Shown: positions 1-34,750 of the stretch, one piece after another
Layout of the letters: each line of letters starts with the position of its first letter
Numbering within the stretch: position 1 is the first letter of the stretch
IMG/VR virus record: IMGVR_UViG_2531839130_000012
Length of the DNA: 35,037 nucleotides
Strand: one strand, 5' to 3'
Source: a virus
Taxonomy: Duplodnaviria > Heunggongvirae > Uroviricota > Caudoviricetes
Program-made: the position numbers and the translations under genes
Notes under the pieces: model-generated
Database searches by the model: none
Told to the model about the DNA's origin: nothing
What the model saw: only the letters and a program-made list of their open reading frames with translations

Positions 1-1032
1 TCAAAAACTTGCTATTGATGTTGGTAGTGTTGCCAGCGGATTAAACCGTAATGCAGTTTCCAGGTGATCCGGTGCTAGATGTGCGTAACGCATAGTCATT
101 TTTATGTCGTGATGTCCGAGGATTTTTTGCAAAGCAAGGATATTTCCACCCGACATCATAAAATGCGCCGCAAACGTATGGCGCAGAACGTGTGTCAGTT
201 GACCGCGAGGGAGCACGATAGACGTTTTTTCCATCACGGATAAAAATTGAAAATAGCAGTCTGTGAAGAAATTGAACCCATCGAGCGCCATGATCTCTTC
301 GTAAAGCTCTTTACTGATAGGGATGCTTCTGTTTTTCTTCCCCTTCGTTCTGACAAAGGTAATTCGGTATTTGGTCACCTGTGAGCGGGTAAGGTTTATT
401 GCTTCTCGCCAGCGTGCGCCTGTGCTTAAGCATATCTTGACTACCAGTGCCAGAATTGGGTCCTGACGTTTGCAATCATCCAGCAGTTCAACAATCTGCT
501 CATGGGTAAGCCATGCCATCTCTTTTTCTGCGATGGTGAATTTTCGCATGTTCTCCAGTGGGTTTGGATACGACCATTCGCCCAGGCGGGATAGTTCGCT
601 AAAAACACTACTTAGATAGCTTTGCTCCAGGTTAATGGTGACCGGGCTGGCCCCTTTCTTCCATTTCTCGCTGAAGTAGATCTCACCTGTCAGTCGTTTA
701 TCTCGATAATGGGCAAACATTTTAGATGTGAGATCGGTTGCAAGGGGATTGCCCAGAGCGTCAACCATCAGCAGCAATTTGTCATAGACATGCTGCCCAG
801 CAGTCAGAGATTTACCATGTAGTTTGAACCATAGCTCAACCACGTCTTTCAGGGTTCGACGATCTACTGATTCGCCCAGCCAGGGCTTTGCTTCGGTTTC
901 TTCCATCGTGTGACGCTCAAAAGCCAGTGCTTCGCCTTTGGTGGCGAATTGTTTACGCACACGACGCCCACTACGTCCGGCGGGGTAACATTCGCAAAGC
1001 CATTTTCCTGTGGTGAGTTTTCGTACTGCCAT
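1..1032 (-). CDS. int: Tyrosine integrase (P2/186 family)
   Basis: C-terminal catalytic region with HVLRHTFAAHFMM (HxxR box) and MTMRYAHLAP (catalytic Tyr); start at internal MAVRK Met preceded by GGAGGG Shine-Dalgarno on the minus strand; stop codon is bases 1-3. Confidence 0.9.
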   Translation of the reverse strand: MAVRKLTTGKWLCECYPAGRSGRRVRKQFATKGEALAFERHTMEETEAKPWLGESVDRRTLKDVVELWFKLHGKSLTAGQHVYDKLLLMVDALGNPLATDLTSKMFAHYRDKRLTGEIYFSEKWKKGASPVTINLEQSYLSSVFSELSRLGEWSYPNPLENMRKFTIAEKEMAWLTHEQIVELLDDCKRQDPILALVVKICLSTGARWREAINLTRSQVTKYRITFVRTKGKKNRSIPISKELYEEIMALDGFNFFTDCYFQFLSVMEKTSIVLPRGQLTHVLRHTFAAHFMMSGGNILALQKILGHHDIKMTMRYAHLAPDHLETALRFNPLATLPTSIASF

Positions 1033-1218
1033 AAAAAATGCCCTCCAATAGAGAGCATTTTTACTGTATGTATAACCAGTGTCAATGTATGAAATCTTGC
1101 GACCATACATCTCACTGAAGCCATAATGAAGTTGGCTATTTTTTGCTATGTGAGTATGTGACTTTTGCGGTTAGCCTGCGGCTCATTGTTATATTAGGCG
1201 CAGATATAAAAGCAAAAA

Positions 1219-3698: not shown

Positions 3699-3925
3699 TG
3701 GCTGATGCAATGGATCTCGTACAGCAGCGCGTTGAAGAAGAACGCCAGCGCCATATTCGTGCTGCCCGTGCCAAAACACCGGGCGTGTCTCGCGTGCTTT
3801 GTATTGAATGTGAAGCGCCAATTCCGCCAGCACGACGCCGCGCCATTCCGGGAGTGCAGCTTTGCATTACCTGCCAGGAAATCGCAGAGCTGAAAGGCAA
3901 ACATTACAACGGAGGTGCTGTATGA
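3698..3925 (+). CDS. TraR/DksA-family C4 zinc-finger protein
   Basis: CIECEAPIP...CITC four-cysteine motif in a 75-aa protein; translationally coupled to the downstream gene (ATGA overlap). Confidence 0.65.
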   Translation: MADAMDLVQQRVEEERQRHIRAARAKTPGVSRVLCIECEAPIPPARRRAIPGVQLCITCQEIAELKGKHYNGGAV

Positions 3926-4779
3926 GCACCATCCTGAAATGGGCGGGAAATAAAACCGCCATTATGTCCGAACTGAAAAAACACCTTCCTGCTGGCCCGC
4001 GACTGGTTGAACCTTTCGCGGGTTCCTGTGCTGTGATGATGGAGACGGATTACCCCAGCTATCTGGTTGCGGATATTAATCCTGATTTAATCAACCTCTA
4101 TAAAAAGGTTGCCGCTGATTGTGAATCGTTTATATCTCGCGCCAGAGTTTTATTTGAGATCGCAAACAGGGAGGTGGCTTATTACAACATAAGGCAGGAG
4201 TTTAATTACTCCACTGAAATTACTGATTTCATGAAAGCGGTATATTTCCTGTATCTCAATCGTCACGGTTACCGTGGTTTATGTCGCTATAACAAGAGCG
4301 GGCATTTCAACATTCCCTACGGTAATTATAAAAATCCGTATTTCCCTGAAAAAGAAATTCGCGCATTTGCAGAAAAGGCCCAGCGAGCAACGTTTATCTG
4401 CGCCAGCTTTGATGAAACGCTGGCGATGTTGAAGGCGGGGGATGTGGTGTATTGCGATCCGCCGTATGACGGTACGTTTTCCGGCTATCACACTGACGGC
4501 TTCACTGAAGATGACCAGTATCACCTGGCATCTGTTCTTGAACATCGGTCATCAGAAGGACATCCAGTCATTGTTTCTAACAGTGACACATCCCTGATCC
4601 GTTCGCTGTATCGCAATTTTACTCACCACTACATCAAGGCAAAACGCAGCATCGGTGTGGCAGCTGGCGAGGGTAAATCAGCAACAGAAATCATTGCTGT
4701 TTCCGGGCCGCGCTGCTGGGTGGGATTTGATTATTCGCGTGGCGTGGATAGTTCTGCCGTGTACGGAGTACGTGCATGA
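3922..4779 (+). CDS. dam: DNA N6-adenine methyltransferase, Dam family
   Basis: Motif [10 protein letters not shown] and motif IV DPPY ([10 protein letters not shown]); starts [11 protein letters not shown]; GGAGG Shine-Dalgarno; stop overlaps the gene A start. Confidence 0.85.
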
Positions 4780-7190
4780 GTCATGCCGATATGAACAACT
4801 GCTGCGGCTTTAACGAGGCTGCCGCAGCATTCTCATGGAACAGCCCGAAAAAGGCCATTAACCCTTATCTGGACCCGGCGGAAGTTGCGCCGGTTTCTAC
4901 GCTTTCAAACCTGATCACTCTGTACGCTGCCGATAACGAGCAGGAACAGTTGCGCCGCGAGGCACTGAGTGATCAGGTCTGGGAGCGTTATTTCTTTAAT
5001 GAATCACGTGATCCTGTCCAGCGCGAAATGGAGCAGGATAAGCTCATTAGCCGGGCAAAGCTGGCGCATGAGCAGCAGCGTTTTAATTCAGACATGGTCA
5101 TTCTGGCGGACGTCAACGCCCAGCCTTCCCATATCAGCAAGCCGCTGATGCAACGTATTGAATACTTCAGCAGCCTGGGCAGGCCAAAGGCTTATTCCCG
5201 CTATTTACGTGAGACGATTAAGCCATGTCTGGAACGACTGGAGCATGTACGCGACAGTCAGCTATCTGCATCTTTTCGCTTTATGGCAAGCCATGAAGGG
5301 CTGGACGGCCTGCTGATCCTGCCTGAAATGAGTCAGGATCAGGTGAAACGCCTGTCCACCCTAGTAGCTGCGCATATGAGTATGTGCCTTGATGCAGCTT
5401 GTGGTGATTTGTATGCCACCGATGACGTTAAGCCAGAAGAAATCCGCAAGACATGGGAAAAGGTGGCAGCGGAAACCCTGCGTCTGGATGTCATCCCACC
5501 TGCGTTTGAGCAACTCCGTCGGAAAAGAAACCGCCGTAAACCCGTGCCCTATGAACTCATTCCGGGTTCGCTGGCGCGTATGTTGTGCGCCGACTGGTGG
5601 TATCGGAAATTATGGAAGATGCGTTGCGAATGGCGGGAAGAGCAGTTGCGCGCTGTTTGCCTGGTCAGCAAAAAAGCATCTCCTTATGTCAGCTATGAAG
5701 CCGTGATGCATAAACGTGAGCAGCGCCGTAAGTCGCTGGAGTTTTTCCGTTCTCATGAACTGGTGAACGAAGACGGCGACACGCTGGACATGGAGGATGT
5801 GGTAAACGCCAGCAGCAGCAACCCTGCGCATCGCCGCAATGAGATGATGGCCTGTGTTAAAGGTCTGGAGCTTATCGCGGAAATGCGCGGTGACTGCGCC
5901 GTTTTCTACACTATCACCTGTCCGTCGCGTTTCCATTCCACGCTAAATAACGGCAGACCAAACCCGACCTGGACAAACGCGACGGTAAGACAAAGCAGCG
6001 ATTATCTGGTCGGCATGTTTGCTGCATTTCGTAAGGCGATGCACAAAGCCGGGTTGCGCTGGTATGGCGTGCGGGTGGCTGAGCCGCATCATGATGGCAC
6101 AGTTCACTGGCACCTGTTGTGTTTCATGCGCAAAAAAGACCGCCGTGCCATCACTGCATTACTGCGTAAGTTTGCCATCCGTGAAGACCGCGAGGAGCTG
6201 GGCAATAACACTGGGCCGCGCTTTAAGTCTGAGTTGATTAACCCGCGCAAAGGAACGCCGACAAGCTATATCGCGAAATATATCAGTAAGAACATTGACG
6301 GTCGTGGTCTGGCTGGCGAGATCAGCAAGGAAACGGGTAAATCTCTGCGTGATAACGCTGAATACGTGAATGCCTGGGCGTCTCTGCATCGTGTTCAGCA
6401 ATTCCGCTTCTTTGGTATTCCGGGGCGTCAGGCTTACCGTGAACTTCGCTTGCTGGCTGGTCAGGCGGCAAGGCAACAGGGTGACAAAAAAGCAGGTGCG
6501 CCGGTACTGGATAACCCGCGTCTTGATGCCATTCTGGCTGCTGCTGATGCTGGTTGTTTTGCCACCTACATCATGAAGCAGGGCGGCGTACTGGTTCCCC
6601 GTAAATATCACCTCATCAGAACCGCTTATGAAATCAACGAAGAGCCGACCGCCTATGGCGATCACGGCATTCGTATTTATGGCATCTGGTCACCCATTGC
6701 AGAGGGCAAGATCTGCACTCATGCAGTGAAGTGGAAAATGGTTCGTAAAGCCGTTGACGTTCAGGAGGCGGCAGCCGACCAGGGCGCTTGCGCCCCTTGG
6801 ACTCGTGGCAATAACTGTCCCCTTGCTGAAAATTTGAACCAACAGGAGAAAGATAAATCAGCTGATGGGGACCCCAGAACGGACATTACCCGCATGGATG
6901 ACAAGGTGTTGCACGATTACCTGCACAGTATGAACAAAAAGGAGCGCCGGGAACTGGCTGCAAGGTTACGCCTGGTGAAACCGAAATGGCGTAGAGACTA
7001 CAAACAGCGAATTACAGACCATCAACGACAGCAGCTCGTCTATGAACTGAAGTCCAGAGGATTTGATGGCAGCGAGAAAGAGGTCGATTTACTCCTTCGC
7101 GGCGGCAGTATTCCGTCAGGAGCAGGCCTGCGTATCTTCTATCGGAACCAGCGTTTGCAGGAAGATGATAAGTGGCGGAACCTGTATTAA
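4776..7190 (+). CDS. A: Replication initiation endonuclease A (rolling-circle initiator, P2 gpA family)
   Basis: 804 aa; HUH-like VHWHLL motif and paired-tyrosine [10 protein letters not shown] motif; position after the early operon. Confidence 0.9.
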
Positions 7191-7259
7191 TTACGCTGGT
7201 TAACAATTCGTGCTCTTAATAATACCAGGCATATCAGGCTGATAAGCGTAAAAAAACGT

Positions 7260-7302
7260 TTTACATCAGTAAGATTATTATATACTGTAAACATAAACAG
7301 TG
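7260..7302 (+). promoter_or_regulatory. SOS promoter: -35 TTTACA (7260-7265), -10 TATACT (7281-7286), overlapping LexA box TACTGTAAACATAAACAGTG (7283-7302)
   Basis: CTGT-N8-ACAG core with 16/20 match to the LexA consensus TACTGTATATATATACAGTA, placed over the -10/+1 region about 45 nt upstream of the next ATG. Confidence 0.6.
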
Positions 7303-7343
7303 GTTATACATACAGTATTGCGTGTGGTGTCATAGGAGGAAAG

Positions 7344-7532
7344 ATGCAGGACTATTTTTTGGAGTCTTTGAAGCTCCAGCGCATTGATTTTTTTCTTAAG
7401 CTTGTAGCGGCTAGTGAGTGTAGTGATGAAGAGAAGGGGCTGGCTCTGCAGTGGGTTTCTGAATTGACTGATGAACTCATGGCAAAAATCAGAAGCCACG
7501 AATACAACCGCTCAATGGATGTCATCAACTGA
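7344..7532 (+). CDS. Small SOS-regulated protein (62 aa), possible Tum-like antirepressor N-terminal module
   Basis: Strong TAGGAGGA Shine-Dalgarno before ATG 7344; first ORF after the LexA box; same position as the 186 tum operon. Confidence 0.45.
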   Translation: MQDYFLESLKLQRIDFFLKLVAASECSDEEKGLALQWVSELTDELMAKIRSHEYNRSMDVIN

Positions 7533-7542
7533 GGTGACTTTT

Positions 7543-7776
7543 ATGCGCATTGAAATAATGATCGATAAAGAGCAGAAGATTAGCCAGTCTACCCTGGACG
7601 CCCTTGAATCCGAGCTTTACCGCAATCTGCGCCCCCTGTATCCCAAAACGGTAATCCGTATCCGTAAAGGTAGCTCTAACGGTGTGGAACTGACCGGACT
7701 GCAACTGGACGAAGAAAGAAAACAAGTGATGAAAATTATGCAGAAGGTGTGGGAAGACGACAGCTGGCTGCATTGA
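7543..7776 (+). CDS. DinI-family protein
   Basis: MRIEIMIDK...LDALESELYRNL...YP...KQVMKIMQKVWEDDSW aligns along its length with E. coli DinI (MRIEV..., ...WESADDW); GAGG Shine-Dalgarno before ATG 7543. Confidence 0.75.
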   Translation: MRIEIMIDKEQKISQSTLDALESELYRNLRPLYPKTVIRIRKGSSNGVELTGLQLDEERKQVMKIMQKVWEDDSWLH

Positions 7777-7830
7777 TTTTGTCAATAGACGCTTGTTTTT
7801 ACTAATCAAAAAGGGTTACATATGAGTGAG

Positions 7831-7863
7831 AGGCGATGTCAATCAGATATCGCCTTGTTTTTT
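7831..7863 (+). terminator. Rho-independent terminator-like hairpin (AGGCGAT / ATCGCCT) followed by TTGTTTTTT
   Basis: Read directly from the sequence downstream of the DinI-like gene. Confidence 0.45.
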
Positions 7864-7889
7864 GTCAAGAAAAGAATAATAGGCTAAAA

Positions 7890-8567
7890 ATGAAAATTAA
7901 TAACGTAGCGTTACCAATATCTCTGGCTGTAATCCTAACTGGTTGCGTGCCACATGCTTCTAACCGAAATATCACTGCTATTGAAGTGGTGAAGCCTGCT
8001 ATTGGGCAAAGTGCTACCGCCTACATGGGCGATCCCATTATCACATCTGCTACTGGATTTAAAACGGACGTACTAGAACTTGGTGCGGCTAATGGTGCAT
8101 TGTCTTCTATCGCTGCTGGTACATATTGCAGTGAGGGGAATGGAATTTACCGCAATTATCATAACCCTCAAGCTGTTGCGTTAAAAAATCTCTATGGGCA
8201 AATCGGTAACTATGTTGATTATGTTAGTTACGATGCTGCAAAAAATGAGATATCACCGCCAAATGGTACTTCTTATACTGCATCAGAAATTTCTATCAAA
8301 CGTGTTCCTGATGGGCTGTGTCGAGTTAGTAACTCATTGGTTAAGACTATCGAATACAATGGAAATGCAGGCGGTGTAATGAAGTTCACCTATCGTGAAT
8401 TTGCAAACGATATGGCTCGTGCAGCATTTACAACAGATTTTTCTGTAGATTCTAAGGGAAGTGACGTTATCGCTTACAAAGGTGCCAAGTTCAAAGTGAA
8501 CAAGGCTGATAACTCGTCTATTTCTTATACAATTATTTCTGGCTTTGACAAGACTGTCACGTTCTAG
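7890..8567 (+). CDS. Lipoprotein of unknown function (lipobox LTGC), cargo gene
   Basis: MKINNVALPISLAVILTGC signal with lipobox Cys; AT-rich; sits between the SOS operon and the cos-like site. Confidence 0.6.
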   Translation: MKINNVALPISLAVILTGCVPHASNRNITAIEVVKPAIGQSATAYMGDPIITSATGFKTDVLELGAANGALSSIAAGTYCSEGNGIYRNYHNPQAVALKNLYGQIGNYVDYVSYDAAKNEISPPNGTSYTASEISIKRVPDGLCRVSNSLVKTIEYNGNAGGVMKFTYREFANDMARAAFTTDFSVDSKGSDVIAYKGAKFKVNKADNSSISYTIISGFDKTVTF

Positions 8568-8671
8568 GTTTCACGCTTGCTGAGTATGTTACGATTTTGC
8601 ACATTCTGCATAAACGCGCATGTCTATGCTGCATGAGATCGCATGATCGTTTGAGGATCTTTTGTGTTAAG

Positions 8672-8698
8672 GCCCGCCAGTTCTGGCGGGCTTTTGCG
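8672..8698 (+). terminator. Rho-independent terminator (GCCCGCCAG ttc TGGCGGGC then TTTTG)
   Basis: Perfect GC-rich stem plus T-run downstream of the lipoprotein gene. Confidence 0.6.
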
Positions 8699-8740
8699 TA
8701 GATCATGCAGGTGCATGAAAACCACTACATAAAGCGGGCA

Positions 8741-8759
8741 GGCGTGGCGGGGATACGAG
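8741..8759. other. Candidate cos (cohesive-end) site, GGCGTGGCGGGGA...
   Basis: 13/13 identity to the start of the 19-nt P2/186 cohesive-end sequence as I recall it (GGCG[A/T]GGCGGGGAAAGCA...); location between gene A and the portal gene matches P2/186. Confidence 0.4.
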
Positions 8760-8840
8760 CGCGCGGATGAGTAATCTATACCATCATCTTGATAAAAGTA
8801 TTAAAAATGGTAAATTTAGCAAGCTACATATTAAAGGAAA

Positions 8841-10238
8841 ATGAAGATGTATGAAGTAATTGATATATCAGCGCAGGAAATTAAGGCGTTGTTAAACACT
8901 ACTGAAGATCATTTCAATGATTTTAAAAGTAAGCAAATAGCGCCTAATAAATTACAAGAAACTTTTGTAGCATTTGCAAATGCTGATGGCGGTAATATTT
9001 ATATTGGCATAGAGGATGCAGCTTCGGGGAGAGAGCGTATATCTGGTTTCAATGAGCCAGAGGAAGCGAATGCTATTATTTCGACCTTATTGGAAAATAC
9101 TAATCCAGCTGTTGAGAATGTTGAGGTGGAATATTTAAGAACACCTTCCAATGGATTGATTTTACATGTGGATATACCAAAAAGCCCCAAAGTTCATTAC
9201 ACGGCCTCTGGCGATTGCTTTATAAGAGCTAACGCGCAAAAATTAAAAATAAAAGGTGAGCGAATTACTCAGCTTTCCTATTCTAAAGGCGCAGAACCTT
9301 ATGAAAAAAAAGCAGTGGATATAGTTGAAGTAGAAGATATTCTTGAAAGTGAATATTATTCTGATTATTTACGTAGAATAGGAACGACTCAGTCACCGAG
9401 AGTTTTTTTAAAAAAACAACGACTGTTAACTAAGAAAGATGGTGAATTTGTCCCGAATGTAGGCTGTGTTTTACTATTTGATGAAGAGCCTCAAGGATGT
9501 TTAGATACTCGATGTGCTGTAAAAGTATATCGGCTTAGAACAACTGAAGCAGAGTACAAACGTGAACAATTACAGGAAGATCCTGTAACGATTGAGGGGC
9601 CACTTGAAGTGGTTATTTTAAATACAATAGCAAAAGTAAAAGAATATGTTGATGGAGCATCATTCAAAGACGGCGAAAATCTAGTAAAACTTAGCTATCC
9701 TGCAGAAGCATTGAAGGAAATATTAGTTAATGCTGTTATTCATAGAGATTACAGCCAAAAGGATGATGTGCACGTAAAAGTTTATGACAACCGGATTGAA
9801 GTTCAAAGTCCAGGCAGATTGCCTGGATACATGACTATTAATAATTTATATGAAGAGCGGTTTTCTCGTAATCCAAATTTAGTGCGTTTGTTGCATAAAC
9901 TTCCCAATCCAGTGAACCATGATATTGGTGAGGGGCTTGATACTGCAAAAAATGAATTGCGTAAGGCCGGGTTGGTAGCCCCGGTATTTGAAGAAAGGGG
10001 CAATAATTTTGTTGTAATAGTTAAGCATCAAACAATAGCCTCAATTGAGGATGTGATTATTAATTATTTTAAAGAAAATCCAACGGGACAGCTCACAAAT
10101 AAGTTGGTTAGACAATTAAGTGGCGAAGATGACCTTCAAAAGGTTAAAAAGGCATTGCAAAAGTTAAGGGAGGAGGGCGTAATAAAACCATTAGATCCTA
10201 ACGCGAATCCTTTCAAATTTAAATATATTAAAGCTTAA
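8841..10238 (+). CDS. Schlafen-like/AlbA_2 DNA-binding domain + HATPase_c_4-like domain + C-terminal winged-helix protein (465 aa); candidate defence/cargo gene
   Basis: N-terminal FNDFKSK...VAFANADGGNIYIGIED (AlbA_2/Schlafen signature); central EALKEILVNAVIHRDYS...VKVYDNRIEVQSPGRLP (HATPase_c_4 signature); C-terminal LTNKLVRQLSGEDDLQKVKKALQKLREEGVI (wHTH-like); strongly AT-rich; flanked by terminators; the start may be ATG 8847 rather than 8841. Confidence 0.7.
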   Translation: MKMYEVIDISAQEIKALLNTTEDHFNDFKSKQIAPNKLQETFVAFANADGGNIYIGIEDAASGRERISGFNEPEEANAIISTLLENTNPAVENVEVEYLRTPSNGLILHVDIPKSPKVHYTASGDCFIRANAQKLKIKGERITQLSYSKGAEPYEKKAVDIVEVEDILESEYYSDYLRRIGTTQSPRVFLKKQRLLTKKDGEFVPNVGCVLLFDEEPQGCLDTRCAVKVYRLRTTEAEYKREQLQEDPVTIEGPLEVVILNTIAKVKEYVDGASFKDGENLVKLSYPAEALKEILVNAVIHRDYSQKDDVHVKVYDNRIEVQSPGRLPGYMTINNLYEERFSRNPNLVRLLHKLPNPVNHDIGEGLDTAKNELRKAGLVAPVFEERGNNFVVIVKHQTIASIEDVIINYFKENPTGQLTNKLVRQLSGEDDLQKVKKALQKLREEGVIKPLDPNANPFKFKYIKA

Positions 10239-10244
10239 GTTAAA

Positions 10245-10269
10245 GGTGGAGGTTGTCTCCACCTTTTTT
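10245..10269. terminator. Bidirectional rho-independent terminator (GGTGGAG gttgt CTCCACC, A-run before, T-run after)
   Basis: Between the convergent 465-aa gene and the portal gene. Confidence 0.55.
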
Positions 10270-10289
10270 CATAGGTAATGATTTTTAAA

Positions 10290-11318
10290 TTATAGTTTAT
10301 AGTGTTCGAAAGTTATTGCTTCTTCATTGATCCAATAGTTGAGATCTTGTAACTTCTTCTGAAGTGGCATCAGTTCATTCCGAACAAATACCCGGCTGGC
10401 CTTCTCCACATCCCCAAACCCTCCAACATTATTAGGCATAATCCCCATCATTTGCGGCGGCACGCGGTGCGCAGCCATCATGTCGTCGCGGCTGACATTT
10501 TTGATATTCAGAAATTCATCCTTCGCCGCGACTTCTGATAACGGGATGATTTGAAGCCCGTCCTTTTTGCCGTTAGGCGAGTACATAAACAGATTGCGGA
10601 AGTTGCCTGGACCTTTGGCGCTTTTCATTGCGTTGCGGAGGTTGTTCACATCCTCCTGGTTCTGCGCGGCATCGGTCATGTACATGATGAAGCCTGCATG
10701 GCTGCCGTTGATGTAATACTTACGGCGGAACAGCGTGGCGGACTCGTTGAGCAGGGCTGACGGAATGGCAGAAAGATAGCCGGGCAGGCCGTAGATCTCC
10801 TGGTTAATGTCCGGTTCCATCAGATGAAAAATGCTGCCTTTCGTGAACTGATACGGCTGGGTTGTCATACCGTATTGCACAAACCAGTAGGTATCCAGGT
10901 CTAACCCGCGTCGGGTGTATTTTGCCAGAGCAGGCTCAAGGGCGATAACTTCACCGAAGCGGTTCGTGCGTTTCTCCAGGTAGGCGTTACCAAATACCAG
11001 ATAGTCCTGCACAAAACGTGAAAAAGCCTGCTGGCTGAGCAGCGGATGGGGGATGTAGGTACTGGTCAGAATGTTGCATTTCACCGCAATTGGTGAACTG
11101 TGATGCACGGCGGCGCGGAAGGTGCGTGCCAGTCCGTCAAAGCTTACTGGCGGCTCATACCAGCGATCTGTCTGTACGCATTCCACATAGTCCAGTAGTT
11201 CGCGGCGGTCCAGAACAGGAACGGGATCACCGAAGCTGAATGCTTCGGCTGTAGTTTGACTTTTATGCTGGATCTGGTTCGTCGACGCAGCGCGGTTCTT
11301 CTTACTCTTTCCCATCAA
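10290..11318 (-). CDS. Q: Portal protein (P2 gpQ family)
   Basis: 342 aa; first late gene next to the cos region, co-oriented with and overlapping the terminase ATPase gene, as in the P2 PQ operon. Confidence 0.9.
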   Translation of the reverse strand: MMGKSKKNRAASTNQIQHKSQTTAEAFSFGDPVPVLDRRELLDYVECVQTDRWYEPPVSFDGLARTFRAAVHHSSPIAVKCNILTSTYIPHPLLSQQAFSRFVQDYLVFGNAYLEKRTNRFGEVIALEPALAKYTRRGLDLDTYWFVQYGMTTQPYQFTKGSIFHLMEPDINQEIYGLPGYLSAIPSALLNESATLFRRKYYINGSHAGFIMYMTDAAQNQEDVNNLRNAMKSAKGPGNFRNLFMYSPNGKKDGLQIIPLSEVAAKDEFLNIKNVSRDDMMAAHRVPPQMMGIMPNNVGGFGDVEKASRVFVRNELMPLQKKLQDLNYWINEEAITFEHYKL

Positions 11319-22915: not shown

Positions 22916-23099
22916 TCCAGTTACTTTGACTGAAGTAATCCCCGGTCTTCATGACGTGACCGGGGCTATTGAATTACCGGAGGACAACTGGTTTTTTACT
23001 ATGACAGAAATTCCTCAGGGCATGGAGCTAACAATTAATGAGAAAGGCGAACCAATACTGATTGAGGTTAATCAGTCTCAGGGAATACAGGCCAAATAA
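22902..23099 (+). pseudogene. Truncated gpG-like tail-fibre assembly chaperone (66 aa, N-terminal part only)
   Basis: GGAGGG Shine-Dalgarno and GTG start overlapping the fibre-tip stop; ...PEDNWFFTMTEIPQGMELTINEKGEPILIEV resembles the N-terminal region of P2 gpG (...[28 protein letters not shown]...); ends where the convergent chaperone gene ends. Confidence 0.4.
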
Positions 23100-23673
23100 T
23101 ATCAGGCGCGGTGCTGGTATCTATTGCCGTCACCGCGTCAATGTAATCCAGCACAGCGTTAAGGCGGGTTGTTTCTGCCTGCGTCAGTTTACGTCCGGCC
23201 TGCAATTTCAGCTGAATCAGACTGATGGAAGCCATAGCAGCATCAATCAGAGACTGGCGCTGTACTTCTGCTGCATCTACTGCGGCGCTATGCTGTGCCT
23301 CGGTATCTGTTACCCATTTCTCACCATCCCATTTATCGTATGGCGTTAATGGGGCAAAAGTGGTCGTATTTTCAGGGTAATCCCCCGGCACAGTAATTTC
23401 TTTTGATTCCCCCGTTTCGATGCCATAGACAATTTCACCGCGATGGTCTGGCACATATTCCCATGAGTTAAAATCTGCAGAACGGCAGATTGCATAACCA
23501 GCCTTATGTGTGCCGGGCGCATCGGTACAGGAATTGGCAGGAATACCCACCCCCACAGGCAGATACTCAAGCGATGAGGATATGTATTCGCGGGTGTCGC
23601 CCCGGTAGTTGTACACAGTGATTTCTCCTGCCACGGTGGCAATAAACGCACTGTTTAATTTTGCTTTCGCCAT
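23068..23673 (-). CDS. Tail-fibre assembly chaperone (Tfa family) of the alternative cassette
   Basis: 201 aa ending ...DYIDAVTAIDTSTAPDIIWPVFPETD (conserved Tfa C-terminal motif); start codon overlaps the stop of the upstream fibre cassette. Confidence 0.75.
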   Translation of the reverse strand: MAKAKLNSAFIATVAGEITVYNYRGDTREYISSSLEYLPVGVGIPANSCTDAPGTHKAGYAICRSADFNSWEYVPDHRGEIVYGIETGESKEITVPGDYPENTTTFAPLTPYDKWDGEKWVTDTEAQHSAAVDAAEVQRQSLIDAAMASISLIQLKLQAGRKLTQAETTRLNAVLDYIDAVTAIDTSTAPDIIWPVFPETD

Positions 23674-24257
23674 TATGCAGCCCTCACGATGTAGTTAAAT
23701 GCAATGTTGCGCGGACGGGTTTCAGATGCGTACACGGACGGATGAGTAACACCGTCTGAGGTCGATGCCCTGTAAGTCCTGAATGGTGGTAATCCGGGCG
23801 CTATTTCGTTGTTATTACCTGTTGGTGAAAGGTCCTTGCGATAAAGGATTACCTTGTCTGCCCTACTGGTTGCGTCCCATGATGTTCCTGACGACGATGG
23901 ACTCAGGACCGCACTGGGTATTTCTGGTTCATCGTTGAAAACCGTATAGATATCGCTTTCCATCTGGTATGACGGATTACCCACTCCGGTTGGCAGAGCG
24001 TGCGCATGGTCCTGGAAAGCAAAACTCTGACAACTGAGAAGTATGCGCCCCCCATCAATCCCTCGCCCGCCATCCCAGCCACGAATAAACTCACCACGTA
24101 AATCTGGCAATTTATTTGTCGGGTAAGCCTTTGCCAGTTCCGGGTATTCTTCAGCAGAAAAAGCCGCACCATTGCATTTCAGCCAGCCTGTTGGCGGAGT
24201 GGCTGAAGGCCACGGAACAGGGACACCAACAGGTAATGCAGAGCCTTCTCCCAAACC
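23673..24257 (-). CDS. Alternative tail-fibre C-terminal cassette with tail-collar domain (promoterless; would fuse to H after inversion)
   Basis: Reads GLGEGSALPVGVPVPWPSATPPTGWLKCNGAAFSAEEYPELAKAY...LPDLRGEFIRGWD (tail-collar-like) starting at the right crossover site; shares the GLGE junction codons with H. Confidence 0.7.
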   Translation of the reverse strand, partial: GLGEGSALPVGVPVPWPSATPPTGWLKCNGAAFSAEEYPELAKAYPTNKLPDLRGEFIRGWDGGRGIDGGRILLSCQSFAFQDHAHALPTGVGNPSYQMESDIYTVFNDEPEIPSAVLSPSSSGTSWDATSRADKVILYRKDLSPTGNNNEIAPGLPPFRTYRASTSDGVTHPSVYASETRPRNIAFNYIVRAA

Positions 24258-24271
24258 AACGTTTATGAAAA
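24246..24271. other. hix/gix-like 26-bp crossover site, right: TTCTCCCAAACC-AA-CGTTTATGAAAA
   Basis: Inverted relative to the left site; core AA versus TT. Confidence 0.6.
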
Positions 24272-24326
24272 TGCAGAGATAATGGTTAACTGGCATCATC
24301 CCCGGTTTTTATTCAGGGGGATGCTC

Positions 24327-24893
24327 ATGCTTATTGGCTATGTACGCGTGTCAACAAATGACCAGAACACCGATTTGCAACGTAATGCACTGAACTGCGC
24401 GGGATGTGAGCGAATTTTTGAGGATAAAATCAGTGGCACTAAGTCCGACAGACCAGGGTTGAAAAAACTGCTCAGGACACTATCGGCAGGAGACACGCTG
24501 GTTGTCTGGAAGCTGGACAGGTTGGGGCGCAGTATGCGGCATCTTGTTACGCTGATAGAAGAGTTGCGTCAGCAAGGCGTGAATTTCCGAAGCCTGACTG
24601 ACAGTATTGATACCAGCACCCCAATGGGCCGTTTCTTTTTTCATGTCATGGGTGCCCTGGCTGAAATGGAACGCGAACTGATAGTTGAACGTACCAGGGC
24701 AGGGCTGGCTGCAGCTCGTGCCAAAGGCAGAGTAGGTGGACGCCGTCCTAAGTTGACCACCGAACAGTGGGCACAGATTGGGCGTTTACTCGAGGCCGGA
24801 GAATCAAGACAGCGTATTGCACTGATTTTTGATGTGGGTGTTTCCACAATTTATAGAAAATTTCCGGCAAATAAGAGCAATGAATCCCCCTGA
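24327..24893 (+). CDS. Serine DNA invertase, Gin/Pin/Cin/Hin family
   Basis: MLIGYVRVSTNDQNTDLQRNAL...LVVWKLDRLGRSM...FRSLTDSIDTS...MGRFFFHVMGALAEMERELI closely resembles Mu Gin; C-terminal HTH. Confidence 0.85.
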   Translation: MLIGYVRVSTNDQNTDLQRNALNCAGCERIFEDKISGTKSDRPGLKKLLRTLSAGDTLVVWKLDRLGRSMRHLVTLIEELRQQGVNFRSLTDSIDTSTPMGRFFFHVMGALAEMERELIVERTRAGLAAARAKGRVGGRRPKLTTEQWAQIGRLLEAGESRQRIALIFDVGVSTIYRKFPANKSNESP

Positions 24894-32417: not shown

Positions 32418-34103
32418 TTATCCTAATCCTGGCCATACCATGACGATGATTGTCCCTGCCAGCGTCAGCAGGACGTTGGCGATTGCGTAGGTGCCCGCGT
32501 AGCCCAGCGCAGGGATGTTACTGCGAGCTGTATCACTGATGATCTCCATTGCCGGCGCGCAGGTGCGTGCGCCCATCATTGCGCCGAACAACAGTGCGCG
32601 GTTCATTCGCAATACATAAGCACCGAACAAGAAACAGATAACCACGGGCACAAGACTGACAATTAATCCGGCAATCAACATCTGACCGCCAATCGCGCCC
32701 AGGCCGTTATTAATACCGCTACCGGCGCTCAGACCAACGCCTGCCATAAACACCATCAAGCCGAACTCTTTCACCATGCTTAATGCACCTTGCGGAATGT
32801 AACCGAAGGTCGGGTGGTTAGCACGCATAAAGCCCAGCATAATTCCGGCGAATAACAACCCGGCAGCGTTCCCCATGCCGAAACTGAATGTGCTGAACTG
32901 GAAGGTGATCATCCCGATCATCAGCCCAATAACAAAGAAGGCGCAAAATGCCAGCAGGTCAGTGACCTGGCTGTGAATCGAGATAAAGCCGATGCGATCG
33001 GCGATGGTTTTTACGCGACGGGCATCACCGCTGACTTGTAAAACGTCACCTTTGTTAAGCACGACGTTGTCATCTATCGGCATCTCAATCTGGCTACGAA
33101 TGACGCGGTTAAGGAAGCAACCGTGATCGGTCAACTTCAGTTGTGCGAGACGTTTACCTACAGCGTTATGGTTTTTAACGACCACTTCTTCAGTGACGAT
33201 ACGCATGTCGAGAAGGTCACGATCGAAAACTTCTTTACCGTTACGGAAGCTGGGATCGAGTCGGGCATGGGCGTCGGGATAGCCTACCAACGCTATTTCA
33301 TCGCCCATTTGTAGCACGGCATCACCGTCTGGATTTGCCAGAATCCCGTTACGTCGAATACGTTCAATGTAGCAGCCGGTTTGTCGATAAATACCCAGTT
33401 CACGCAGATTTTTGCCGTCGGTCCAGGCCACCAGCTCCGGGCCGACGCGATAGGCGCGGATCACCGGTAAATAAACCTTACGGTTGGCATCAGTGTCCAG
33501 GCCACGTTCGCGGGCGATTTGCTGGGCGCTGGTCTGTAAGTCCTGATGCTGCAATTTCGGCAAGTAACGCGCACCAACAATCAAACTCACCAGACCGATT
33601 AAATAGGTTAAGGCATACCCGAGGCTCAGATTATCCAGTGCCAGTGAGAGCTGCCTGCTTTCCATGCCGGAATGACGCAGTGTATCGCCAGCACCGACCA
33701 GAACCGGTGTCGACGTCATAGAGCCTGCTAACATACCGGCCGTCAGGCCAATATCCCAGCCAAACAGCTTACCTAACCCTAAGGCGATCACCAGCGCACT
33801 GCCAACCATCACCAGTGCTAACATTAGGTAATTTTTCCCATCGCGAAAAAAAATGGAAAAAAAGTTCGGTCCGGCTTCGACCCCGACGCAGAAAATAAAC
33901 AGCATAAAGCCAAGATTAAGCGCATCGGTGTTAATGCTGAAATGTTGTTGGCCTAATAACAGCGATACGACTAAAACGCCAATGGAATTACCCAGTTGGA
34001 TCGAACCAAGTCGTAACTTTCCGAGACATAGCCCAAGCGCGAGGACCACAAATAATAACAGAATGTAATTCCCATTTAACAATTCGGCGACGTTTATATT
34101 CAC
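32418..34103 (-). CDS. ybjL: Putative AAE-family transport protein YbjL (chromosomal)
   Basis: 561-aa polytopic membrane protein with central soluble domains; size, and position next to ybjM and grxA, match E. coli ybjL. Confidence 0.85.
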
Positions 34104-34372
34104 GGAGGCTAACTTCTTGTTTACTAGTAAGCTGTTGAAAGAAATGGTAATTTACGATAATGTTTTTTACCAGAATTCAGGGCGCAGATTCATTCAGCGC
34201 ACCTAAACGATAGTAAAGTAACAATATATTTTACTAGTGTAATCACATTAGGTATCAACGGCTATATGAATTGCGTTGGCCTATATTAGCATGGAATGCG
34301 AAGCGGCTTTATCTTACTGAACGCCACACTGGCGAAAAATGTGTTCGATAGACGCAGTGTCAGGAGGAACGA

Positions 34373-34750
34373 GTGAAACATAAACAACGTTGGGCGGGGG
34401 CAATCTGCTGTTTTGTCCTCTTCATTGTGGTGTGCCTTTTTCTGGCGACGCACATGAAAGGCGCTTTTCGGGCTGCCGGGCATCCTGAAATCGGCTTGCT
34501 ATTTTTCATTCTTCCTGGAGCAGTCGCCAGCTTCTTTTCACAGCGTAGAGAAGTCCTGAAACCTCTGTTTGGCGCAATGCTGGCGGCACCCTGTTCGATG
34601 CTCATTATGCGGCTGTTTTTTTCACCGACGCGCTCATTCTGGCAAGAGCTGGCATGGTTACTAAGCGCGGTGTTCTGGTGTGCGCTGGGGGCACTGTGTT
34701 TCTTATTTATCAGTAGTTTGTTTAAACCACAGCACAGAAAAAATCAGTAA
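34373..34750 (+). CDS. ybjM: Inner membrane protein YbjM (chromosomal)
   Basis: 125-aa hydrophobic protein between ybjL and grxA, as in E. coli. Confidence 0.75.
   Translation: MKHKQRWAGAICCFVLFIVVCLFLATHMKGAFRAAGHPEIGLLFFILPGAVASFFSQRREVLKPLFGAMLAAPCSMLIMRLFFSPTRSFWQELAWLLSAVFWCALGALCFLFISSLFKPQHRKNQ

Follow-up and report, generated by a model that had tools for sequence, protein, structure and literature searches.

We analyzed the interval between the replication endonuclease gene A and the portal gene Q in a viral DNA of 35,037 nucleotides (IMG/VR record IMGVR_UViG_2531839130_000012), the whole of which is referred to as the window. This interval, or island, contains a pair of small genes preceded by a predicted LexA box, a putative lipoprotein gene, a cohesive-end site (cos), and a gene for a protein of 465 amino acids (aa), all of which the first-pass annotation had listed there (Table 1). 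By its gene content, the window is a P2-family prophage of the Fels-2/186 type. It carries genes for an integrase, a 186-type CI repressor (PF07022, PF16452), a Dam-like methylase, A, Q, the terminase protein P, and tail proteins, and host genes resembling ybjL and ybjM follow downstream of the phage tail genes. The order of A and Q is the same in Fels-2, 186, and P2, which confirms the assignment of the interval, and positions 7191-8765 share ~98% identity with Fels-2 and Salmonella phage RE2010 as well as with many P2-like phages of Klebsiella.

Table 1. Features of the island and its flanking genes; positions are those of the window.
Feature	Position	Strand	Description
Replication gene A	4776-7190		PF05840; its end at 7190 is the left limit of the island
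p95-like SOS promoter region	7259..7316	+	Predicted LexA box and a weaker overlapping LexA-like element
62-aa gene	7344..7532	+	Candidate TumA-type antirepressor by position; phrog_698, no Pfam family
DinI-family gene (TumB), 77 aa	7543..7776	+	PF06183, 81 bits
Variable slot L cassette	7777..8623	+	Hairpin 7830-7856 with T-run (putative intrinsic terminator) and putative lipoprotein gene 7890-8567
Conserved cos flank, 117 bp	8624..8740	.	t95b-like hairpin 8669-8694; four GCATGA repeats 8631-8718; GC 0.55
cos	8741..8765	.	19-nt cohesive-end sequence 8741-8759 and conserved CGCGCG; predicted by homology
Variable slot R cassette	8766..10289	+	Promoter-like site, predicted Schlafen-GHKL-winged-helix gene, hairpin terminator
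Promoter-like site	8789-8816	+	TTGATA-16-TGnTAAATT, extended -10
465-aa open reading frame	8841-10238	+	Predicted Schlafen-GHKL-winged-helix gene
Hairpin terminator	10242-10266	+	T-run continues to 10269
Portal gene Q	10290..11318	-	PF04860; stop codon begins at 10290; right limit of the island

To find the variable modules, as the first-pass annotation had proposed, related prophages were compared at 160 loci, each fetched around a portal homologue; IMG/VR and GTDB species genomes supplied 80 loci each. Q, cos, the DinI gene, the 62-aa gene, and A were located in each locus, and the DNA between these landmarks was clustered at 80% identity and coverage. The distance from Q to cos was either ~183-193 bp (GC 0.54-0.62), an 'empty' state like the short gap that separates cos from Q in P2 and 186, or 530-3530 bp (GC 0.32-0.47). 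The distance from cos to the DinI gene was likewise either ~200 bp ('empty', GC 0.51) or 460-4500 bp (GC 0.33-0.47). Only two units vary, one on each side of cos, on a conserved backbone, and not the four independent modules that had been claimed earlier; we call them slot L (from the DinI gene to the cos flank) and slot R (from cos to Q). Slot R was represented by 78 types and slot L by 46 types over the 160 loci, and the 70 relatives with a portal identity of at least 93% held 41 and 23 types, respectively, in 62 combinations. The slot-R cassette of the window was found again in the locus L008 and in one Citrobacter genome, and its lipoprotein cassette in six other loci; the two cassettes together were found in none of the 160 fetched loci. 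In L008, Q and the 465-aa gene are identical to those of the window and the slot-L cassette is different, which places a crossover in the cos flank. Since cassettes would be swapped by recombination in the conserved flanks, the two slots are expected to assort independently.

The borders of the two slots were compared among the cassettes. To the right of cos, similarity ends after CGCGCG(C), 7 bp past the end of the 19-nucleotide (nt) cohesive-end sequence, with a weak residue to about +17, and a few slot-R cassettes retain more of an ancestral spacer. At the other end of slot R, similarity between cassettes stops at or within the last codons of Q, and these codons belong to the recombination junction. 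To the left of cos, the 117-bp flank is conserved beside nearly all cassette types, including 23 different slot-L cassettes. The variable DNA thus starts 7-17 bp past cos on its right and 117 bp away from it on its left, which confirms that this DNA is directly adjacent to cos. These junctions imply that no more than ~7-17 bp on the Q side are required for a functional cos, whereas ~117 bp are retained on the DinI side. The open reading frames (ORFs) of slot R are almost uniformly oriented, 108 of 110 pointing from cos to Q, and those of slot L are mixed (39 to 28). In 76 of the 78 slot-R types, the 70 nt preceding the Q stop codon contain a strong hairpin, so that each cassette appears to supply a terminator that also faces the convergent P-Q operon. 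When the slots of the other loci were searched with PADLOC (E <=1e-10), slot R matched PDC-M03, PDC-S49, bSEFIR, AbiL, AriA, and retron RT-Toprim, and slot L, among the matches listed, type II and Dru/Drm-type methyltransferase models. We consider it highly probable that the island is a cos-adjacent accessory hotspot of a Fels-2/186-like P2-family prophage, in which a conserved backbone carries two replaceable cassette slots. Its flanking genes A and Q, its adjacency to cos, and its variable content bear out the earlier view that the interval corresponds to the P2 tin/old (gpA-gpQ) hotspot; strictly, only slot L is positionally equivalent to tin/old.

The likelier start of the 465-aa ORF in slot R is ATG 8847 (463 aa), as judged from the Shine-Dalgarno spacing and the RefSeq annotation. 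Promoter-like sites, including those at 8789-8816 and 7862-7891, number 9 in the region as compared with 10.0 in shuffled sequences. The 465-aa cassette is present in 8 of 5426 complete E. coli genomes, always at an identity of at least 99.8%, and the lipoprotein cassette in 50; both occur together in one (H41). At this identity and on diverged backbones, the 465-aa gene behaves as a presence/absence cassette. The slot between cos and Q of Fels-2 (L002, 5644-7341) holds an unrelated 565-aa hypothetical gene. The 465-aa gene is accompanied by a reverse-strand 141-aa gene replacing the lipoprotein gene in E. coli 2017.11.01CC, and by a DUF4145 protein in E. coli 20AR0354 (both in the set of loci L001-L003).

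From its sequence, the 465-aa protein is predicted to be a fusion of a Schlafen nuclease, a GHKL ATPase, and a winged helix, with the catalytic motifs intact. Pfam assigned PF04326 (SLFN_AlbA_2) to residues 22-137 (66.9 bits versus a cut-off of 25.3) and PF13749 (HATPase_c_4) to residues 309-393 (62.6 bits versus a cut-off of 26). The Schlafen motif E22-DHFN-D27-F-K29 (Ex4DxK) and the VAFAN box (residues 43-47) do not vary among 16 homologues, whose identity goes down to 69%. The same holds for the GHKL residues E293 and N297, which have the E-x3-N spacing of E314/N318 in RzAgo. The definition of the Ex4(E/D)xK motif was taken from PMC13056530 and the SLFN-pAgo preprint. An AlphaFold2 model of the protein (16 close homologues) was used for domain-level Foldseek matches only and for no structural argument. 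The model matched 3lmm (E = 3e-16), histidine-kinase CA domains, the SLFN13 N-domain, and winged-helix proteins including MarR-type folds; 3lmm, the closest solved structure, would share the same architecture and is an uncharacterised structural-genomics protein.

Perez Taboada et al. 2026 (PMC13056530) showed that Schlafens of bacteria are tRNases activated by phage, and reported that the commonest pSlfn fusions are those with histidine-kinase-like domains (34%) and with such domains plus a helix-turn-helix (19%). The supradomain formed by SLFN and GHKL has been named 'Schlatpase' (bioRxiv 10.64898/2026.05.29.728809). We give about an even chance that the 465-aa protein is an autonomous sensor-effector antiviral tRNase. 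The protein would sense an infecting phage, perhaps via its winged helix, oligomerise on ATP binding, and cleave tRNA, by which the growth of the competitor would be aborted or slowed. Slot R would hold a self-contained promoter-gene-terminator unit, and the protein would be expressed from the lysogen.

Several observations weigh against such a function. The AlphaFold2 model is of low confidence (predicted local distance difference test score, pLDDT, of 58.6). PADLOC gave partial domain-level matches only, among them one of its pAgo model over model positions 55-437, and no defence system. Orthologues with 70-83% identity (L169, L171, and L172 from Dickeya, Thiobacillus, and Photobacterium) are solitary amid housekeeping genes and lie in no defence islands. 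In PMC13056530, 7 pSlfn systems were tested and only the DUF262 and Ig-like fusions protected, none of them of the histidine-kinase type. It is possible, though rather doubtful, that the protein is a DNA/RNA-binding regulator, as database names suggest, or a housekeeping-type factor, and not antiviral. A C-terminal winged helix whose predicted fold matches MarR-type and other winged-helix folds would suit a regulator, and so would the occurrence of single orthologues amid metabolic genes in three distant genomes, the lack of protection by histidine-kinase-type pSlfn among the systems tested, and the ~30% of pSlfn genes without defence neighbours reported in the same paper. However, the nuclease motif and the Mg/ATP residues of the ATPase are invariant, the gene occupies a slot where relatives hold recognised defence genes, and it is a presence/absence cassette. 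An identity of 70-83% is unusually high for a gene scattered over hosts as distant as Dickeya, Thiobacillus, and Photobacterium. Short proteins with Schlafen and GHKL domains (with or without a winged helix) form the most abundant prokaryotic Schlafen class, one without a demonstrated phenotype, and no defence phenotype has been published for the short Schlafen-GHKL-winged-helix architecture. Since the 465-aa gene occupies a validated defence slot and has a promoter-like site and a terminator of its own, it is well suited as a test case for whether this class is antiviral.

The cos sequence GGCGTGGCGGGGATACGAG is unique within the window. It agrees with cos of 186 at 15 of 19 positions and with that of P2 at 14 of 19, and the flanks are conserved on both sides. 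The 117-bp flank on the DinI side would be the probable place of terminase recognition. Four GCATGA repeats, three direct and one inverted, were observed within 88 bp of this flank, as compared with 25 in the whole 35-kb window; they are conserved beside nearly all cassette types and may be terminase recognition repeats. The hairpin in the same flank is, from its sequence and position, the predicted counterpart of t95b of 186 and part of the conserved backbone.

The junctions and the orientation of the cassettes are explained most simply by recombination followed by selection. Cassettes would be swapped between related phages by recombination in Q on one side and in the cos flank and the SOS operon on the other. 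After swapping, selection would strip dispensable spacer and disfavour cargo that is co-oriented with the highly expressed late operon. Alternatively, slot R might be filled by a cos-linked, orientation-specific capture process. In the linear genome as packaged, slot R lies at the very left end, and new DNA could thus be joined to it at end processing or re-circularisation. The cassettes that mostly start 7-17 bp from the cos nick and end in the last Q codons, as well as the orientation of the 108 ORFs, point in this direction. We regard such a capture process as improbable; if it is true, cos of the P2 family is an active gene-capture site, which would give the hotspot a mechanism.

The two genes next to A are also explained by the reading of the island as a conserved backbone with two slots. 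The LexA box TACTGTAAACATAAACAGT (7283-7301) is the sole exact match to TACTGT-N8-ACAGT within the window. When one mismatch was allowed, 4 matches were found in the window as compared with 0.38 expected, and 4 was never reached in shuffled sequences. A CTGT-N8-ACAG box is located directly 5' of the tumA-like gene in the relatives checked, including some whose 62-aa homologue has just 46% identity, as well as in PSP3 and 186, and the 186 record annotates the promoter p95 and a LexA site at the equivalent position. We thus predict a LexA operator at the promoter of the first SOS gene; the putative -35 and -10 elements of this promoter were read by eye, and the promoter scan reported none there. 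A weaker LexA-like element, CAGTGGTTATACATACAGTA, was found at 7297-7316 with 15 of 20 consensus matches and a 6-nt overlap with the main box, and a similar element is present in Fels-2; this suggests that the two are tandem operators. Another LexA-like box, TACTGTATGTATAACCAGT, which differs from TACTGT-N8-ACAGT by one mismatch, is present at 1062-1080, ~30-50 bp into the integrase gene (1-1110, minus strand) from its 5' end, and could be a chance match.

The product of the second gene shares 41% identity with the C-terminal half of 186 Tum (E = 3e-24), and the DinI equivalog model was its sole match in NCBIfam, with a score below the cut-off of the model. The same DinI gene is annotated in Fels-2 as similar to PSP3 TumB. 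PSP3 has tumA ('UV induction of prophage') and the DinI-like tumB annotated at this place. Lemire et al. 2011 (PMC3121763) reported that a stop codon splits tum in Fels-2 and PSP3 and that the upstream gene of PSP3 is an antirepressor. A point against a TumA function of the first gene is that BLASTP detected no similarity of the 62-aa protein to 186 Tum (N-terminal half) or PSP3 TumA, and function transfer by homology from these proteins was dropped. Its TumA-type role is thus proposed from its position, size, and LexA control and from what has been published on the split tum genes of Fels-2 and PSP3. Divergence of an antirepressor alongside its cognate CI is to be expected. By these comparisons, the pair is the predicted split tum (tumA/tumB) SOS switch of 186-type phages, and it belongs to the conserved backbone and not to the cargo. 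The LexA-repressed promoter would drive the split tum operon upon DNA damage and cleavage of LexA; the 62-aa product would then act as an antirepressor of the phage CI, leading to prophage induction, and the DinI-like product would modulate RecA.

The first-pass annotation had explained the island as modular accretion of morons around cos, in which the LexA operon, the lipoprotein gene, the cos unit, and the 465-aa gene are four independent AT-rich morons acquired singly. The units are indeed separated by hairpins in an AT-rich interval, and P2 has orf91 in place of the tum operon, so that the operon is lineage-specific on a deep timescale. However, the LexA box and the 62-aa and DinI genes are 97-100% identical in nearly all close relatives, and the operon is present in 1125 of the 5426 complete E. 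coli genomes. It has a core-like GC content at third codon positions (GC3) and a documented core regulatory role in 186, PSP3, and Fels-2, and cos, its flank, and the hairpin at 8669-8694 are conserved beside nearly all cassette types. Four separate accretions are thus very unlikely. The idea of accretion stands for the two AT-rich, horizontally acquired cassettes that differ among relatives; the LexA pair, with its core-like codon composition and conservation, and cos are backbone. Morons of temperate phages, as described by Juhala, Hendrix and colleagues, are insertions that fall between arbitrary gene pairs. Like them, both cassettes end in their own terminators, deviate in composition, being AT-rich, and are polymorphic in presence and absence, and the 465-aa gene has a promoter-like site. 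Unlike them, the cassettes are confined to two fixed slots with near-constant junctions.

The product of the slot-L gene has a predicted signal peptide and lipobox (MKINNVALPISLAVILTG followed by Cys, with LTG before this Cys), which agree with the bacterial lipoprotein pattern [LVI][ASTVI][GAS]C. G18 and C19 are invariant in 22 homologues, and two more cysteines are conserved besides that of the lipobox. The mature protein would have ~206 residues, and its sorting to the outer membrane is expected because position +2 is not Asp. An ORF of 243 aa starting at ATG 7836 was rejected, since this start lies within the hairpin and RefSeq and the homologues begin at 7890. The family is small (27 clusters), enterobacterial throughout, and without a name. 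The cassette begins right at the DinI stop codon and replaces an ~80-bp hairpin-bearing segment that most relatives, including 'empty' ones, have kept. In 186, orf97 is transcribed from the LexA promoter past the partial terminator t95a, and the 186 record states that plasmid-expressed orf97 blocks infection by 186. The read-through in 186 raises the possibility that the lipoprotein gene is transcriptionally linked to the SOS operon and not independent of it. Since the gene is co-oriented with the SOS operon and located behind the canonical hairpin at 7830-7856 and its T-run, it is plausible by analogy with 186 that this hairpin is partially read through after SOS induction. The lipoprotein would in part be expressed in this way and act at the cell envelope, by superinfection exclusion or receptor masking. 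Two points count against this proposal: the protein has no informative homologue or fold match, and a weak promoter-like site (7862-7891) precedes its gene, which leaves the SOS coupling as an analogy with 186. BLASTP showed that the lipoprotein is unrelated to 186 Orf97 (E = 4.5), although position and ORF length are the same, and transfer of the function of Orf97 was dropped.

The base composition and the hairpins of the island were then compared with the descriptions in the first-pass annotation. The GC content of the island (7191-10289) is 0.390, the lowest of any 3.1-kb stretch in the window; the next lowest non-overlapping stretch has 0.44, and the mean is 0.537 with a standard deviation of 0.036. 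All 500-bp windows in 7001-10500 have a GC content of 0.436 or less, as compared with 0.51-0.61 in the structural genes. The AT-richness is patchy: GC3 is 0.26 in the 465-aa gene and 0.32 in the lipoprotein gene, and the 62-aa gene (0.53) and the DinI gene (0.58) are close to the core genes (0.57-0.70). The 143-bp cos region has a GC content of 0.55. The island as a whole is thus AT-richer than the core, as had been noted, but neither the third codon positions of the 62-aa and DinI genes nor the cos region are. That the low GC content reflects functional constraint by promoters, cos bending sites, and terminators, and not a foreign origin of the genes, is extremely unlikely, since the strongest signal is the GC3 of the cargo genes, the cos flank is GC-rich, and the cassettes are absent from most relatives, although part of the AT-richness does lie in the non-coding promoter regions 7191-7343 and 8766-8840.

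The hairpins at 7830-7856, 8669-8694, and 10242-10266, the first and third of which have a T-run, show folding energies of -18 to -26 kcal/mol (z = -3.8 to -4.6 versus shuffled sequences). This evidence rests on folding and not on the consensus terminator scan, which caught only the first of them owing to its rules on the T-run and the longest stem. The earlier description of modules separated by hairpin terminators holds in that the three hairpins are real and the cassettes end in their own; it fails for 8669-8694, which belongs to the conserved cos flank, and this hairpin was rejected as a module boundary. An Rfam scan of 7000-10500 gave no match at E <=1, and neither PADLOC nor NCBIfam gave a system-level match for the four island proteins (the 62-aa protein, the DinI-family protein, the lipoprotein, and the 465-aa protein).

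Some features outside the island were also observed. A module resembling an invertible segment is present in the tail-fibre region (23068-24893, GC 0.44-0.50), where a gene for a Hin/Gin-type serine recombinase (24282-24893, plus strand) adjoins a tail-collar fragment on the reverse strand (23673-24299) and a gene for tail-fibre assembly (23068-23673); the module probably serves to switch the host range. A gene for a D12-class (Dam-like) adenine methyltransferase (3862-4779) overlaps the start of gene A, is also present in Fels-2, and is scored as an orphan by PADLOC. The host genes at 32418-34750 encode a ybjL-like Asp-Al_Ex/TrkA_C permease (minus strand) and YbjM.

Several known systems resemble parts of the island. 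The 465-aa protein shares with pSlfn and Schlatpase proteins PF04326 and PF13749, the Ex4(D/E)xK motif, a SAFAN-like box (VAFAN), and the GHKL E/N pair, and its N-terminal domain order is that of SLFN-pAgo. It differs from them in that it lacks an Argonaute domain, an Ig-like domain, and a DUF262 sensor and has only the winged helix at its C-terminus. T5 Llp and Cor of phi80 and N15 are phage outer-membrane lipoproteins that block receptors. The slot-L lipoprotein is, by a functional analogy only, comparable to them as a small prophage lipoprotein with no Asp at +2, but no sequence or fold similarity was found, and it is much larger.

The left part of the island resembles the SOS operon of 186, whose record gives the order p95 (LexA site), tum, the partial terminator t95a, orf97, the terminator t95b, and cos at the genome end. 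Common to both are the position after A, the LexA box, the DinI part, a hairpin, a second gene, and a second hairpin before cos. The differences from 186 and PSP3 lie in the 62-aa protein, which is unlike the N-terminal half of Tum and TumA, and in the lipoprotein, which does not correspond to orf97 in sequence. Compared with the TO (tin/old) or gpA-gpQ hotspot of P2, the island is alike in its location between A and Q and by cos, its hypervariability, and the defence genes in relatives. In P2, however, cos has old and tin on its A side and an empty gap towards Q, a slot that is also empty in 186, whereas both sides are filled in the window.

According to Rousset et al. 2022 (PMC9122126), 18,150 E. 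coli loci of the gpA-gpQ hotspot show 1,650 different gene arrangements, and Table S5A of this paper contains the entry 'hypothetical + HATPase_c_4/AlbA_2 + hypothetical + DinI' with WP_001471283, which is the RefSeq accession of the 465-aa gene in its E. coli matches. De Sousa et al. 2026 (PMC13586616) describe rapid swapping of defence cassettes in 1,511 P2-like prophages and state that the mechanism of the hotspot 'still need[s] to be elucidated'. This kind of hotspot is thus already known and the cargo gene is already catalogued, and since the hotspot has been catalogued in P2-like prophages by the thousand, a further example such as this locus adds little in itself. The two-slot substructure, the junction positions, and the orientation rule were not found in the available text of these two descriptions, which does not prove their novelty, and we regard them as modest refinements. 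They provide a cleaner anatomy, with a conserved SOS switch, cos with its 117-bp flank, and two slots, which helps annotators to tell the cargo from the other genes between A and Q, and the near-uniform orientation between cos and Q is a rule that any mechanism must explain.

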